Source: Caulobacter sp. (GTDB lineage Bacteria; Pseudomonadota; Alphaproteobacteria; Caulobacterales; Caulobacteraceae). Taken from it: a stretch of DNA of 64,000 nucleotides. Shown here one piece after another: positions 2,678-14,359 of this stretch; position 1 is the stretch's first letter, and the number at the start of each line of letters is the position of its first letter. The position numbers were made by a program, and so were the translations under genes. A model generated the notes under the pieces. The model made no database searches and was not told where the DNA came from. It worked only from the letters and a program-made list of their open reading frames with translations. The stretch lies in assembly GCA_016125585.1 (NCBI GenBank), contig WGLL01000015.1, positions 47,668-111,667 on the forward strand, given 5' to 3'.

Positions 2678-3913
2678 TCAGCCCCGCGAGAGTCCCAACT
2701 GGATCACATTGGTCCGCTCGCTGCGGAAGCCCGCCTCGCAATAGGCGAGGTAGAAGCGCCACAGGCGGCGGAACCGCTCGTCGAAGCCCTGGGCCCGCAC
2801 CTGGTCCCACACCGCGTCGAAGCGGTGCAGCCACTGGTTCAGGGTGTCGGCGTAGCACTGGCCGAAGCGGTTGACCCCGGTCCAGTCGAGGCCGGCGCGG
2901 TCGGTCTGTTCCTTCAGCTTGCCCTCGCTGGGCAGCATGCCGCCGGGGAAGATGTACTTCTGGATGAAGTCGGCGTGGCGGCGGTAGTGGTCGAAGAACT
3001 CGTCGCGGATGGTGATGATCTGCAGGCCGGCGCGGCCCCCGGGCGACAGCACCTCGTGGATCTTGCCGAAATAGGTCGGCCAGTATTCCTGACCCACCGC
3101 CTCGAACATCTCGATGGAGGCGACCCGGTCGAAGCGGCCGTCCACGTCGCGGTAGTCGATCAGCTGGATCTTCGCCTTCTCGGCCAGGCCGGCCTTGAAC
3201 AATCGCTCCCGGGCGTAGTCGTACTGGGCCTGGGAGATGGTGATGCCGGTCACGTTCGCCCCGACCTCGCGGGCGGCGAACTCGGCGAACCCGCCCCAGC
3301 CGCAGCCGATTTCAAGAACCGTCTGATCGGGCTTCAGGTCGATGGACCGGGCCAGGGCCGCATACTTCTCGTGCTGGGCGGCTTCCAGCGGCTGGTCGGC
3401 GCTTTCGAACCGGGCCGAGGAGTAGGTCATCGACGGGTCGAGCCACAGCTCATAGAAGCTGTTGCCCAGGTCGTAATGGGCGTGGATGTTCTTCCTCGCC
3501 CCCTCGCGGTCGTTGCGCCGCATCAGGTGGACGATGAAGTTGTAGGCCTTGACCAGAGGATTGCCGGCCATGATCCGGCCGATCTGATCGAGGTTGAAGG
3601 TGAAGGCGGTCAGCAGGGCCGGCAGGTCGGGGGTGTCCCATTCGCCGGCCATATAGCCCTCGGCGAACCCGATGTCGGCCGCCGACATCACCCGGCCGAT
3701 GGCCCGGTAGTCCCTGACGATCAGCTCGGCGGTCGGCCCGGCCTCGCGGCCGCGGAAGGTGAGCCGGCGTCCGCTCGGCATCACGACGTCAAGATTGCCC
3801 GTCGTCCAGTTGGTCCGGAGCACCTTCATGGCCGTGCGGAAGGTCGCCGGCGCGGCCCTGAAGTCAGGCGCTTCCCAGTCGGACGAGGTGGCGTTCACGG
3901 CGAATTCGCTCAT
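2678..3913 (-). CDS. cfa: Cyclopropane-fatty-acyl-phospholipid synthase family SAM methyltransferase (CfaS/UfaM-like)
   Basis: NIHAHYDLGNSFY, MTYSSA, VLEIGCGWG, SIEMFEAVG, FIQKYIFPGGMLPS, YLAYCEAGF. Start placed at ATG 3913, which has GAGGAG upstream. Confidence 0.92.
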   Translation of the reverse strand: MSEFAVNATSSDWEAPDFRAAPATFRTAMKVLRTNWTTGNLDVVMPSGRRLTFRGREAGPTAELIVRDYRAIGRVMSAADIGFAEGYMAGEWDTPDLPALLTAFTFNLDQIGRIMAGNPLVKAYNFIVHLMRRNDREGARKNIHAHYDLGNSFYELWLDPSMTYSSARFESADQPLEAAQHEKYAALARSIDLKPDQTVLEIGCGWGGFAEFAAREVGANVTGITISQAQYDYARERLFKAGLAEKAKIQLIDYRDVDGRFDRVASIEMFEAVGQEYWPTYFGKIHEVLSPGGRAGLQIITIRDEFFDHYRRHADFIQKYIFPGGMLPSEGKLKEQTDRAGLDWTGVNRFGQCYADTLNQWLHRFDAVWDQVRAQGFDERFRRLWRFYLAYCEAGFRSERTNVIQLGLSRG

Positions 3914-10296: not shown

Positions 10297-11511
10297 ATGC
10301 GAGGTTGGGGCATGTTTCGCAATCTGACTGGCCTTAATCTGACCGGCGTCCGACTGTGGATCGCCCTGGCCGGCGCCGCCGTGGTGCTGCTCCTCATCGT
10401 CGGGCTGCTGGTGTTCCGGGTCGACATTCTGCGCACCTCGCTGGATCCGAGGGTCCCTTTCCAGACCTATGATCCGCCCAACGGCCCCGACTACAGCGAG
10501 AGCCGCGCCTGGGCCCTGATTCCCGGCGCCCCGGCCAGTCCCCGCGCCGACGACCCGCCGGCCGACATCTTCTTCATCCATCCCACCACCTATGACGGCG
10601 GCGATCACTGGAACGGGCCGTTCCGCGACGCCCGGGCCACCCGCATCAACAGCCAGGTGATGCTGCCCAACTATGCCGGACCCTTCGCCAGCGCCGGCCG
10701 GGTGTTCGCGCCCCATTACCGGCAGGCCAGCCTCTATGCCCAGCTGACCCTGCGCGAGGACGCCCGCGAGGCGCGGGAGTTCGCCTATGGCGACGTCCTG
10801 GCCGCCTTCCGAAAATGGAAGGCCGACTATGGCGGCGATCGGCCGTTCATTCTGGTCGGGGTAGAGCAGGGCGGGGTGCTGGCCGCCCGCCTGCTGGCCG
10901 AGGAGATCGCCCCGGACCCGGCGCTGATGAAGCGGATGGCCGCGACCTATCTGATCGAGACCGTGGTTCCGGCCGAGGCCTACGGGCCGACCTCGCCGCC
11001 GCCGGCCTGCACCAGCCGGGCCCAGGCCGGCTGCGTCCTGGCCTGGAAGTCCGGCTCGGCGGTCGAGCGGGGCCGCATCCGCGAGCGATCGCTGGTCTGG
11101 GACAAGGCGGGCCGGCTGGTCAGCCTCGCCGGCCGCCAGCCGCTCTGCGTCAATCCGCTGACCGGAACCGCCACCGATGACCTGATTGCCGCGCGCGCCA
11201 ATCTGGGCGCCGCCAATGCCACCGGCCTCGACTGGGGCGATCGCCCGCCGCTGGTCGCCCGCGCCGTCGAGGCCCAGTGCGAGGATGGGGTGCTCAAGGT
11301 CTCGCGGCCCAAGTCACGCACCCTGCGGCGCAGCGGGGGCTGGGCCGACCGCCTGCGGATGCCGCCCTACAATCTGTTCTACGCCGACATCGAGGCAGAC
11401 GCCCGGGCCCGGGTCGCGGCCCGCATGGGACTGTCGGCCTTCCCGCAGATGGCCCCGCCGATCACCCGCTCGGTGCCCGTCCGCACCGTGCCGACGCACC
11501 GGATAAACTAG
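10297..11511 (+). CDS. DUF3089 domain protein (alpha/beta-hydrolase-like, N-terminal membrane anchor)
   Basis: DIFFIHPTT, RVFAPHYRQA, RPFILVG, LCVNPL. Confidence 0.75.
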   Translation: MRGWGMFRNLTGLNLTGVRLWIALAGAAVVLLLIVGLLVFRVDILRTSLDPRVPFQTYDPPNGPDYSESRAWALIPGAPASPRADDPPADIFFIHPTTYDGGDHWNGPFRDARATRINSQVMLPNYAGPFASAGRVFAPHYRQASLYAQLTLREDAREAREFAYGDVLAAFRKWKADYGGDRPFILVGVEQGGVLAARLLAEEIAPDPALMKRMAATYLIETVVPAEAYGPTSPPPACTSRAQAGCVLAWKSGSAVERGRIRERSLVWDKAGRLVSLAGRQPLCVNPLTGTATDDLIAARANLGAANATGLDWGDRPPLVARAVEAQCEDGVLKVSRPKSRTLRRSGGWADRLRMPPYNLFYADIEADARARVAARMGLSAFPQMAPPITRSVPVRTVPTHRIN

Positions 11512-11879
11512 CCCTCTTCGAGGGTTTTCAGCCCGGCGTAGTTAGGCTGGTCGATGCGCACCTGATCGATGATCGAGGCCTTCAGATGGGCCAGCAGGGC
11601 CGGATCGGTGGGGGAAATCTCGCCCTCGCGGATCCTGGCGCAGAGCTCGCCGTTCAGGCTGCTCCAGTCGCCACCGTGGCCCAGCAGGGCGATCAGCCGC
11701 TCGACCTGGGCCGCCTCGGCGGCGGCCCCGCTCGCCATTTCCCGCTTGATCGCGGCCAGGGCGTTGACCGCCACCCGGGCGTGGAAGGCGTCGCGATCCT
11801 TCAGCTGCGGGCTGACCCGCTCCGCGATGAAGCGGATGACGCTGTCCATCAGTTCGGCGCTGGTGGGATGGCTGATCAT
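11508..11879 (-). CDS. DUF6285 family protein (LvaB-like kinase partner)
   Basis: PTSAELMDSV..F, FHARVAVNAL, HLKASIIDQVRIDQPNY. ATGA overlap with the upstream kinase gene. Confidence 0.75.
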   Translation of the reverse strand: MISHPTSAELMDSVIRFIAERVSPQLKDRDAFHARVAVNALAAIKREMASGAAAEAAQVERLIALLGHGGDWSSLNGELCARIREGEISPTDPALLAHLKASIIDQVRIDQPNYAGLKTLEEG

Positions 11880-12853
11880 GATGCGGCCTCCAGCAGGGCG
11901 ACCAGATCGATCTCGGTCTCGCTGGTCCGCCGCCCGATCATCGCCCGCTCGACCGAGGGGTCCGACCCTGTCGCATAGGCCAGGTACATGGTCAGGCACA
12001 TGCAGCCCCACTTCAGCGACCCCAGCATTTCCCAATAGAGCACCCGCTCCAGCGACACCGCCTTGCCGCCCGCCGCCTCATAGGCCTCCAGCAGGTCGGC
12101 ATAGTCGCCAAAGCCGCCGACGGGCTTGCCCCCACCGAAGCGCCAGCTGCGGGTGCAGATCCAGCCCAGGTCCTCGGCCGGATCGCCCAGATGGGCCAGT
12201 TCCCAGTCCAGAACGCCCGTCAGGCCCTGTTCGGGGTGAACCATGATGTTGCCGTTGCGAAAATCGCCGTGCACCAGCACCGGCGTATCCATCTTCGGCG
12301 CCCGGTCCCGAAGGTAGCGAATGGCGGCCTCGAAGATCGGTCGCTCGGCCCCGGCGCTGCGATAGACGGCCTCGTATTTCTCAAGCTCGGTCAAGGCGCT
12401 GGAGGTGACTAGCTCAGGCAATCCTTCAAGAGGAATGCTGTGGATCGCCGCCAGGGCCTTGCCGCACTGCGCCGCCAGGCCGGGGCGCACGCCGGCGAAG
12501 GGCGGGTCGCGGGCGATGCGCTTGCCCAGGGTCTCGCCCTCCAGCCGGCCCATCACATAGGCCTCGCCGATCTCGCTGTCCGGGGCGCTGACCGCCAGCA
12601 CCCTGGGCACGGGCGCGCCCGCCTTAGACGCCGCCTGGATCAGGGCGGCCTCGGTGGCCAGGGGCACGGCGTTGCCGCTGCCGGCGGCGCTTGGCGGCTT
12701 GCGACGCAGGATCAGCGGCACGCCGGTATCGGTCTCGAAGGCCCAGGTTTCCTGGCTGGCCCCGCCGGACAGGCGGCGCAGGTTGACGGTGGTCTTCGCG
12801 CCGGCGTCAAGGGTCGGGGCGAGGGCGGACAGGGCCTGTTCCAGATCGCTCAT
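11876..12853 (-). CDS. APH/ACAD10-11-like phosphotransferase (LvaA-like)
   Basis: LSGGASQETW, VHGDFRNGN, LDWELAHLGDPAEDLGW. Confidence 0.85.
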   Translation of the reverse strand: MSDLEQALSALAPTLDAGAKTTVNLRRLSGGASQETWAFETDTGVPLILRRKPPSAAGSGNAVPLATEAALIQAASKAGAPVPRVLAVSAPDSEIGEAYVMGRLEGETLGKRIARDPPFAGVRPGLAAQCGKALAAIHSIPLEGLPELVTSSALTELEKYEAVYRSAGAERPIFEAAIRYLRDRAPKMDTPVLVHGDFRNGNIMVHPEQGLTGVLDWELAHLGDPAEDLGWICTRSWRFGGGKPVGGFGDYADLLEAYEAAGGKAVSLERVLYWEMLGSLKWGCMCLTMYLAYATGSDPSVERAMIGRRTSETEIDLVALLEAAS

Positions 12854-12972
12854 GGTCCTCGATTCCGACCTCTCACGCCGCGTCAGTCAAACCCAATCGC
12901 CGCGACTTGCCAGAGGTGACCGTCCGCGCCATCCTCGCCACGCTTTCACGCCCTCGTGGAAGGAGTCAAACC

Positions 12973-12993
12973 ATGCAGGCCACCGCTAGCTGA
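12973..12993 (+). other. Candidate leader peptide MQATAS* upstream of the MFS gene
   Basis: AAGGAG Shine-Dalgarno at 12960-12965, ATG at 12973, TGA at 12991-12993. The SD and start are complementary to 13080-13098. Confidence 0.5.
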
Positions 12994-13111
12994 TCGATCG
13001 CCCGGCGCCAGAGGCGCGCCGAGTGACCATCGCCCAACGCCCTCTCCGGGCGTGGTTTGTCGCGCGCGCCGCGCCGACCGGCCTGCATCGCACTCCTTTT
13101 CGAAAGCTTTC

Positions 13112-14359
13112 ATGACCAGCACCCTCTGGCGTCATGCCGACTTCCTGAAGCTCTGGGCGGCCCAGGCCGTCTCCGCCTTCGGCTCCCGCATCACCCGCGA
13201 GGGCCTGCCGATGGCCGCCGTCCTCACCCTAGACGCCCGGCCGGGAGAGCTTGGCCTGCTGGCCGCCCTCAGCCTTGGTCCGGGCGTCGTCATCGGCCTG
13301 TTCGCCGGCGGCTGGGCCGATCGGCGCAGCCGAAGGCCGATCCTGATCGGCGCCGATATCGCCCGGGTCCTGTTGCTGCTCAGCGTGCCCATCGCCGCCT
13401 GGACGCATCTGCTGGCCATGCCGCAGCTCTATGTCGTCGCCGCCCTCGTCGGCGCCGCCAGCGTGGTCTTCGCCATCGCCGACCACGCCTATCTGCCGGT
13501 GTTGCTGGACCGTGACCAGCTGCTCGACGGCAACAGCAAGCTGGGGGTCACCGACTCCATCGCCGAGATGGGCGGGCCGGCCCTGGCCGGTCTGCTGTTC
13601 CAGATCTTCACCGCGCCCGTCGCCCTGCTGGCCAACGCCGGGACCTATCTGGTCTCGGCGGTCTTCCTGATGGCCATCGGCAAGGTCGAGGCGCCGCCGA
13701 CCGCGCCAAAGGTCCGCAGGCATCCGCTGGAAGACGTCGCCTTCGGCTTTTCAGCGGTCTGGCGCCAACCGCTGATCCGGCCCCTGCTGCTGATGACGGT
13801 GGTGCAGACGCTGTTCGGGTCGTTCTTCTCCAGCCTCTATGTCTTGTTCTGCATCCGGACGGTGGGCCTCTCTCCCGGCCTGCTGGGGGTCGCCATCGGC
13901 GTCGGCGGATTCGCCGCCCTGTTCGGCGCGCTTCTGGTTCCGCGCGCGATCCGGATGCTGGGCTATGGCCGCGCCATCATCATCACTGCGGTGCTGTCGG
14001 CCATCGGCGCCCTGATGACCCCCCTGGCGCCGGCCAGTCTCGTCGCCGGGGCGGCGGTGTTGATCCTCGGCCAGTTCGTCGCCGACCTGTTCGGCGTGGC
14101 GGCGATGATCCCGGCCTCGACCCTGAGGCAGGCGGTGTTTCCGCCGGAGATCCTGGGGCGCACCGGCGCCGTCTTCCACGTGGCGCGGGGCGGCTTCGCC
14201 GTTGTCGGGGCCCTGGTCGGCGGCGTACTTGGCGAGATGATCGGGGTGCGCGAGGCGCTGTTCATCGGCTGTCTTGGCATTCTCGCGGGACCCCTGATCC
14301 TGGTGTCCTCGCCGCTGCGGTCGTTGAAGGCGTTGTCGGAACAACATCCCTCTCCCTGA
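13112..14359 (+). CDS. MFS transporter (DHA3/Mef-like efflux family)
   Basis: WRHADFLKLWAAQAVSAFG, motif A-like GGWADRRSRRPIL, about 12 hydrophobic segments. Confidence 0.85.
   Translation: MTSTLWRHADFLKLWAAQAVSAFGSRITREGLPMAAVLTLDARPGELGLLAALSLGPGVVIGLFAGGWADRRSRRPILIGADIARVLLLLSVPIAAWTHLLAMPQLYVVAALVGAASVVFAIADHAYLPVLLDRDQLLDGNSKLGVTDSIAEMGGPALAGLLFQIFTAPVALLANAGTYLVSAVFLMAIGKVEAPPTAPKVRRHPLEDVAFGFSAVWRQPLIRPLLLMTVVQTLFGSFFSSLYVLFCIRTVGLSPGLLGVAIGVGGFAALFGALLVPRAIRMLGYGRAIIITAVLSAIGALMTPLAPASLVAGAAVLILGQFVADLFGVAAMIPASTLRQAVFPPEILGRTGAVFHVARGGFAVVGALVGGVLGEMIGVREALFIGCLGILAGPLILVSSPLRSLKALSEQHPSP

Follow-up and report, generated by a model that had tools for sequence, protein, structure and literature searches.

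A conserved short leader ORF with long-range pairing upstream of an MFS transporter gene in Caulobacter: a candidate translational attenuator

We analysed a stretch of 64,000 nucleotides (nt) from Caulobacter sp. (GenBank assembly GCA_016125585.1, contig WGLL01000015.1, positions 47,668 to 111,667), referred to as the window, in which the gene for a transporter of the major facilitator superfamily (MFS) is preceded by a leader open reading frame (ORF) of only six codons. Leader-peptide attenuators are a classic bacterial means of turning on resistance genes only when the ribosome is under attack. To our knowledge, the characterised examples come nearly all from Firmicutes, actinobacteria or mobile elements. 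An original prediction, made from the sequence of the window, had described a possible promoter, a leader ORF and two pairs of complementary segments upstream of the transporter, and proposed that a ribosome held on the leader induces an efflux pump. Re-reading the sequence from 12600 to 13400 located all of these elements at the positions given.

The leader, its predicted fold and the transporter

The features of the element and of the gene that it might regulate are the following, all on the plus strand; strands of the predicted helices P1 to P3 were located in the minimum free energy (MFE) fold, those of P2 and P3 also as inverted repeats.

12907..12913, plus strand: -35-like box TTGCCAG of the putative leader promoter, from the sequence
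12926..12935, plus strand: putative -10-like element GCGCCATC (CATCCT at 12930-12935); the transcription start site would be near 12940
12942..12947, plus strand: 5' strand of P1, GCUUUC, at or near the mRNA 5' end; resembles the 16S 3' tail CCUUUC
12960..12966, plus strand: leader Shine-Dalgarno sequence (SD) AAGGAGU, which is also the 5' strand of P2 (sequence, MFE fold, exact inverted repeat)
12973..12993, plus strand: leader ORF ATG CAG GCC ACC GCT AGC TGA (MQATAS*), the first 9 nt of which are the 5' strand of P3
12998..13075, plus strand: variable leader interior with GC-rich hairpins, including ACGCCC/TCTCC/GGGCGT at 13037-13053 (MFE fold, inverted repeats)
13080..13088, plus strand: 3' strand of P3, GGCCUGCAU (GGCCTGCAT in DNA), opposite the leader AUG (anti-AUG)
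13092..13098, plus strand: 3' strand of P2, ACUCCUU, a mimic of the anti-SD (compare the 16S tail CACCUCCUUUC)
13102..13107, plus strand: 3' strand of P1, GAAAGC, at -10 to -5 of the transporter AUG
13112..14359, plus strand: candidate regulated gene for a 415-amino-acid MFS transporter of the type with 12 transmembrane segments (DHA3-like / MFS_3, Pfam), with a start lacking an SD

The leader ORF ends with a TGA at 12991-12993, its AAGGAG is separated from the ATG by a 6-nt spacer, and it is co-oriented with the MFS gene, 118 nt upstream of the MFS ATG. The inverted-repeat search found both claimed complementarities, AAGGAGT with ACTCCTT and ATGCAGGCC with GGCCTGCAT, to be exact (100%), and the internal hairpin ACGCCC-TCTCC-GGGCGT is indeed present. 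Folding of 12940-13130 with RNAfold placed both pairs of arms in the MFE structure (-82.8 kcal/mol, z = -3.4, 1 of 200 shuffles equally stable) and added the outer helix P1 between GCUUUC (12942-47) and GAAAGC (13102-07), which the original prediction did not contain. The duplex formed by the leader initiation region (-14 to +9) with the 40 nt before the MFS ATG has an energy of -25.3 kcal/mol, which puts it within the best 0.5% when compared with 819 background windows of 40 nt from this locus. The 3' arm spans -32 to -14 of the MFS start and, via P1, also -10 to -5. The leader initiation site is thus predicted to pair just before the MFS start as had been proposed, but the MFS AUG itself lies outside the helix. 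An additional complementarity of 9 bp, the last base of which was added by eye, was seen between CGCCAGAGG (13006-13014, in the first interior hairpin) and CCUCUGGCG (13123-13131), which covers transporter codons 4-7 (LWR motif). It is restricted to the window and one relative (L119), and in this lineage it could additionally clamp the beginning of the coding region.

The transporter start was placed at ATG 13112, which is common to the orthologues, because in the relatives the frame closes a few codons before this ATG; only in the window does the open frame extend back to a GTG at 12956. No GGAG-type SD is found 5' of 13112, in agreement with the original prediction. In C. crescentus, 75.4% of the coding sequences have no SD (PMC4117421), and a start of this kind is therefore ordinary in Caulobacter. 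It should mainly depend on being unstructured, and the strong SD of the leader is the unusual feature. The 16S rRNA of a leader-bearing congener ends with GGAUCACCUCCUUUCU, and the leader SD matches the 16S tail over 6 nt in the window (AAGGAG) and over 8 nt in most relatives (GAAAGGAG against CUCCUUUC). Since the 3' arm (CACUCCUUUUC) and the 5' strand of P1 (GCUUUC) both resemble the 16S tail, they would act as anti-SD mimics. The conserved 3' end of 16S rRNA gave no match in the draft assembly of the strain itself (20 contigs), in which the rRNA operon is apparently absent or incomplete. In the same genome, the search with the 16S tail met a copy of the Caulobacter small RNA CC2171 (RF01867, 78.6 bits; locus L269 on contig C5, ~131757-131922); this copy holds a perfect extended SD, GAAAGGAGGUGAUCCAG, since its opposite strand carries CTGGATCACCTCCTTTC.

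The proposed promoter TTGCCA-N17-CATCCT is present as a sequence and its TTGC box recurs in the relatives, but a scan for promoters of the E. coli type found none. In 15 of 15 orthologues the leader ATG is preceded by the TTGC box at a distance of 62-71 nt, even in the two loci (L127 and L129) where this position falls within the coding region of a DUF3089 gene, and a (C/T)AT motif resembling a -10 element was recognised by eye at the same place in the relatives. The consensus of Caulobacter sigma-73 is TTGaCgS-N10-14-GCtANAWC. The arrangement TTGCCAG-N12-GCGCCATC resembles this consensus and would start the RNA close to the 5' strand of P1.

Concerning the transporter, membership in the MFS is clear from Pfam (MFS_1 6.7e-23, MFS_3 1e-20); its designation as an efflux pump is less so, as all curated resistance-family cut-offs were missed. 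The best NCBIfam match was TIGR00900 (DHA3 H+ antiporter subfamily) with 173.2 bits against a cut-off of 319.6. Tet(V) scored 52.7 bits (cut-off 640) and Mef(A/B/C) 28-37 bits (cut-offs 675-870), and the match to EntS was weak and far below its cut-off. By sequence, the protein is efflux-like and not a named resistance gene product, nor a curated DHA3 member. Searches of PDB sequences with the transporter and with the DUF3089 protein encoded nearby gave no match.

Conservation of the leader ORF and of the pairing

Orthologues of the transporter were gathered from 127 genomes of the genus, GTDB species genomes and metagenomes, yielding 15 distinct upstream sequences and one metagenomic one (L182), with transporters 62-92% identical. 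An SD followed by an upstream ORF of six or seven codons and a stop is present in 16/16 distinct Caulobacter orthologues with at least 62% identity. Six codons are found in the window, seven in most relatives, and ten variants of the peptide occur: MQATAS (window and L119), MQATAI (L182), MQATAIR, MQATVTR, MQATATR, MQVTAIR, MQATAIG, MKATSIR, MKVASIR and MQVTTTA. In ten relatives aligned to a covariance model (R1, described below), leader codons 1-4 are 99% identical to the window and the strands of P1 98% (GCUUUC) and 97% (GAAAGC), with only ~33% identity in the leader interior. The stop is maintained despite the indels that separate six from seven codons and despite a two-base difference between TAG in L127 and TGA in L129.

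The leader occurs in two gene contexts, either divergent from an APH-family gene or directly 3' of the DUF3089 stop (L127 from C. ginsengisoli, and L129). In orthologues with 53-61% identity it is absent, and the MFS start lies against the DUF3089 stop or overlaps it. In the phylogeny, the transporters with a leader group into a single clade (support 81/95) that also contains one long-branch intruder; the sister of this clade is leaderless and has a DUF3089-MFS operon (100/99). The motif GGAGTCA-N(1-6)-CATGCAGGYCACC was detected in 7 of 401 Caulobacteraceae genomes, all seven of them Caulobacter, once per genome and always before an orthologue of the window transporter; the control gave zero matches. 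A pattern scan of metagenomes returned 80 loci, six of which have a short ORF after the motif and one of which (L182) is a true homologue; the other matches are due to chance.

No SD-led mini-ORF was found before distant homologues (36-55% identity) in Phenylobacterium, Chloroflexota and actinobacteria. The Phenylobacterium orthologues (~50% identity; L055, L058, L059, L060 and L062) carry a different conserved leader ~130 nt before the MFS start (locus coordinates roughly 2740-3000). It consists of a promoter-like box AAGCTTGACTT, a hairpin GGTGAGCC-N18-GGCTCACC and two further GC hairpins, with no obvious upstream ORF and no Rfam match, and it may be an independent, undescribed regulatory leader of the same gene family. 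A locus from a Rhizomicrobium metagenome-assembled genome (L051) has a three-codon ORF, ATG AAG GCG TAA (MKA*), ~110 nt before the MFS start, lacking an SD and with a complementary CTTCAT ~60 nt downstream. It may be an analogue in a very reduced form, or have arisen by chance.

Conservation is also found for the pairing. In 15/15 individual MFE folds the leader SD, with or without the AUG, is paired to the region -33 to -5 of the MFS start, and P1 is formed in most of them. Two lineages have changed both arms and are still complementary. In L011 and L126, GGGGUGAUCC, located directly before the leader AUG, pairs with GGAUCACCC, and this 3' arm abuts the MFS AUG (reaching -1) and covers its AAGGA SD. 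L127 and L129 use GGGGAGUC with GAUUCCUC, including two G.U pairs. The pairing is further supported by L123, which extends both arms together (GAAG-AG-GAG with CUC-UC-UUC), and by the metagenomic homologue L182 with a G.U pair in P3. Such G.U pairs are possible only in RNA of the plus strand.

The covariance model R1 was built from six relatives, and the window was not part of the seed. It found the window element at full length (50.5 bits, E ~1e-10), as well as four other leaders from outside the seed. In the alignment of 11 sequences, 88.8% of the cells are paired, compared to 37-47% with slid partners, and 20 pairs differ in both partners, where shuffles gave 8.8 +/- 1.8 (the observed value was reached by 0 of 500). 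The double changes include 8 of 11 pairs of P2 (helix 3 of the model), partly as register shifts, and 7 of 9 pairs of an interior hairpin (helix 9). P1 (helix 1) has 95.5% of its cells paired and never varies on both sides, and P3 (helix 4) is paired in 95.5%; since both are almost invariant, they are uninformative either way with respect to covariation. The number of interior hairpins differs, with three in the window and two in the relatives. R1 missed the four most divergent leaders (L011, L126, L127 and L129), and their pairing was therefore judged from individual folds. Mononucleotide shuffles of the long arms gave duplex z-scores that are uninformative for most relatives, and empirical background windows were used instead. 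Covariation is thus seen in two lineages that have diverged in both arms and are still complementary, and in the G.U pairs, but the support is moderate. Both the leader ORF and the predicted pairing, together with their conservation, are shown here, and the lack of conservation that the original prediction had named as a refutation was not observed. The pairing is a conserved design that is strongest in the lineage of the window itself, with covariation that is real but moderate.

Two neighbouring genes were assigned by profile searches:

11876-12853, minus strand: divergent APH phosphotransferase-family gene, with no specific assignment
10297-11511: DUF3089 gene

The APH gene is followed by a DUF6285 gene, so that the order across 10297-14359 is DUF3089, an inverted DUF6285-APH pair, the leader and the MFS gene. 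The C. ginsengisoli locus has DUF3089, leader and MFS, and the sister clade (L012-L014) has the DUF3089-MFS operon, with the stop abutting the start. This old partnership may hint at the substrate of the transporter. The wider neighbourhood is of a housekeeping nature (photolyase, heptose-synthesis genes, RecG), and no regulator of the TetR or MarR type was found among the neighbouring ORFs scanned. Between the APH start and the leader promoter, a motif GTCAGTCAA is present at ~12882-12890 (within 12854-12900); the form CGTCAGTCAA(A/C)C is conserved in all contexts of the window type. Read on the minus strand it gives TTGACTGACG, a -35-like box ~35-40 nt before the APH ATG, and because of this distance the APH mRNA may be leaderless or nearly so.

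A probable translational attenuator and its alternatives

We consider it probable (roughly 60%) that the element is a cis-acting leader-peptide translational attenuator of the cat-86/cmlA type. The mRNA would probably start near 12940, and ribosomes would translate the very short leader with its strong SD immediately after its synthesis. The anti-SD/anti-AUG segment would be transcribed ~110 nt further on; it can pair with the leader SD and the first three codons (P2 and P3), with P1 joining the mRNA 5' end to -10 to -5 of the transporter start. Once the leader ribosome has gone, a composite helix P1-P2-P3 of ~22 bp would close, burying -33 to -5, the 5' half of the SD-less transporter initiation region, together with the leader SD and AUG, a locked off state. 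A ribosome held on the leader, for instance by a translation inhibitor, would occupy the 5' arm by its footprint and by the SD-anti-SD contact, leaving the 3' arm single-stranded and the transporter open for translation. Within this model, we infer the transcription start, the stalling by a drug, the inducer, the export of that drug by the pump and how large the effect is.

The suggestion that a held ribosome frees the MFS initiation region agrees in direction with calculations in silico, but the gain is modest. When the leader is masked as by a ribosome, the cost of opening -18 to +12 of the MFS start falls in 14 of 15 sequences, from a mean of 10.7 to 8.1 kcal/mol. The mean change is 2.6 kcal/mol, with 4.3 in the window and 5.4-6.9 in L011 and L126. 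P1 may still form when the leader is masked.

The peptide offers a clue to the inducer, though not a test. In every variant the fourth residue is Thr or Ala, and Ala, Ser and Thr predominate at positions 3-5. Arrest by chloramphenicol and linezolid occurs on chains of 3-6 residues whose penultimate residue is Ala, Ser or Thr, and MTI and MAI are model arrest peptides (10.1101/2021.06.17.448903). Several of the leaders read ...T-A-I. A bolder version of the attenuator is conceivable, though we regard it as speculative: a self-locking, single-shot sensor acting during transcription. The invariant Thr/Ala at position 4 and the core rich in Ala, Ser and Thr (M-Q-A-T-A-I-R) would in that case mark a novel group of alphaproteobacterial arrest peptides that respond to chloramphenicol-like inhibitors of the peptidyl-transferase centre and control a DHA3-like pump with no described regulator. 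Since the strand that closes the helix is the leader SD and AUG itself, only the first ribosome, loaded during transcription, could report inhibition; after closure, leader and transporter start would be shut for the life of that mRNA.

Several observations weigh against an attenuator. The transporter scores below every curated resistance-family cut-off, and the older partnership with DUF3089 hints at a substrate other than a drug. The MFS AUG is unpaired, the helix ending at -14 (SD helix) or at -5 (outer helix). On masking of the leader, the unpaired probability of the MFS initiation region rises only from 0.46 to 0.53 on average, and one relative (L010) gains nothing. Because the leader SD and AUG are themselves sequestered in the ground state, the model requires ribosome loading during transcription, and the transcript start upstream of the leader is predicted from promoter-like boxes. 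For R1, the pairs were counted on an alignment that had itself been fitted to the structure, and register shifts account for part of the double changes. Relative to the background windows, the duplex between the arms is only within the top 4-20% in most relatives and at 62% in L139; the case for the structure is therefore made by its conserved position together with a small number of covarying lineages. By eye, no bias was seen at the third positions of the leader codons, and selection on the peptide itself is therefore not proven.

An alternative is a module of leader ORF and structure that works constitutively, with no drug signal, and sets a fixed low level of transporter translation or stabilises the mRNA by a 5' stem. 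Translation of the leader would then transiently open the helix, amounting to positive translational coupling at a distance. The conserved leader and pairing fit such a module too, the predicted difference between on and off is small, and the transporter is not a recognised resistance gene and sits in a housekeeping neighbourhood. On the other hand, a strong extended SD, a strict ORF of six or seven codons and a helix that sequesters its own leader would be elaborate for a fixed set-point, the sister clade does without a leader by coupling directly to DUF3089, and known elements of similar anatomy (cat, cmlA, erm) are inducible. Altogether we regard constitutive action as rather unlikely. Control at the level of transcription would have to act through Rho, since no intrinsic terminator was found in 12700-13300 and no U-tracts follow the hairpins in the sequences of the relatives. 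In tna-type attenuation, a ribosome that stays at the stop codon of the leader would cover a Rho site in the C-rich spacer, and transcription would continue into the transporter gene. The untranslated spacer of 82-118 nt is indeed richer in C than in G in 15/15 sequences (C/G 1.27-1.68; C 36-47%); however, it is predicted to be almost fully paired in GC-rich hairpins, which is unfavourable for Rho loading, and the kept complementarity between the leader SD/AUG and the segment before the start would be left unexplained. A Rho-dependent mechanism thus appears improbable to us.

It might also be that there is no RNA switch and that the arms are a by-product of GC-rich sequence, an inverted repeat acting at the DNA level (an operator or the remnant of a mobile element) or part of a small ORF on the minus strand. 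GC-rich arms do give strong random duplexes (background mean -14 kcal/mol), and several relatives are only one standard deviation better. Against this speak the uniqueness of the leader region in the genome, the motif that occurs once per genome and only before the transporter among the 401 Caulobacteraceae genomes, the G.U pairs that can form only on the plus strand and the maintained stop of the upstream ORF. We regard such an explanation as largely refuted and very improbable. A repeat or mobile element was rejected, as the 172-nt leader searched has a single copy in its own 3.96-Mb genome. The arms create a mirror-image SD and ATG on the minus strand, where the window has an ORF of 41 amino acids starting with AAGGAGT-N3-ATG (40-41 amino acids in the set); it was rejected as non-coding because its frame and sequence change between relatives. 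A riboswitch was likewise rejected, given the poorly conserved interior (33%) and the varying number of hairpins, and Rfam 15 gave only chance-level matches over 12500-13500 (E > 1, far below the gathering scores).

If the attenuator is real, it would be a chromosomal and vertically inherited one in the genus Caulobacter, with natural variation at hand in the form of ten peptide variants and three arm architectures. It would provide a compact 180-nt system for asking which inhibitors a nascent chain of 6-7 residues senses, and it would allow testing whether a leader that sequesters its own initiation site gives one-shot sensing during transcription. For a transporter family that otherwise goes with a hydrolase-like DUF3089 gene, it would also offer a way to approach the substrate.

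Comparison with known attenuators

No description of this element was found in the literature searches made, and it is not in Rfam. The closest relatives in anatomy are cat-86 and cmlA (Tn1696), which Lovett's work reportedly established as cases of chloramphenicol-inducible translation attenuation, with leaders MVKTDKISS and MSTSKNADK. As in these systems, the Caulobacter leader ORF is very short and has its own SD, no terminator is present, and Ala, Ser or Thr stand at what are possibly penultimate arrest positions. The single two-arm layout predicted here is also alike, the stem of cat-86 and cmlA having its 5' arm in the leader and a 3' arm that occludes the initiation region of the resistance gene, and cmlA shares the MFS exporter and the Gram-negative host. 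In contrast to cat-86 and cmlA, the 5' arm here consists of the leader SD and codons 1-3 instead of codons 2-6, so that the leader sequesters itself. Further differences are the distance between the arms (~100 nt, with two or three hairpins in between), the SD-less regulated start with its AUG outside the helix, and the leader of six or seven codons instead of nine. The sequences are not similar.

In ermC and ermB, drug-dependent stalling on the leader remodels the mRNA and exposes a downstream start, and we propose a comparable event for Caulobacter. The erm leaders differ in having 8-36 codons with the arrest motifs IFVI, RLR or +x+, none of which occurs in any of the ten leader peptide variants. 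They also use four segments that form mutually exclusive hairpins; in the orthologue folds no conserved alternative pairing was found, and one alternative (I2) is limited to the window.

The uORF of whiB7 is a sensor of stalled ribosomes that induces efflux in actinobacteria. In PA5471.1/armZ-mexXY, an upstream ORF senses ribosome inhibition and switches on efflux (PMC12057347). Both act on transcription of a regulator gene, whereas the Caulobacter leader is proposed to act directly on translation of the pump mRNA. The mef(E)/mel leader MTASMRLR belongs to a transcriptional attenuator before a DHA3 MFS pump (PMC4335068). With it, the Caulobacter leader shares a short peptide upstream of a Mef/DHA3-like transporter and a loose likeness in small residues (M-T-A-S against M-Q-A-T-A). 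However, mef/mel works by an intrinsic terminator and carries the macrolide motif RLR, both absent here, and the terminator hairpin with U-tract that characterises trpL, bmrB and mef/mel alike is missing from the Caulobacter leader.

By analogy, the element would thus come closest in its working to the translation attenuation of cat-86 and cmlA, as a previously undescribed example of a familiar class. Its architectural peculiarity, directly observed in the predicted fold, is that the leader's own initiation site forms one arm of the helix, which, if functional, would be a variant of the known regulatory logic.

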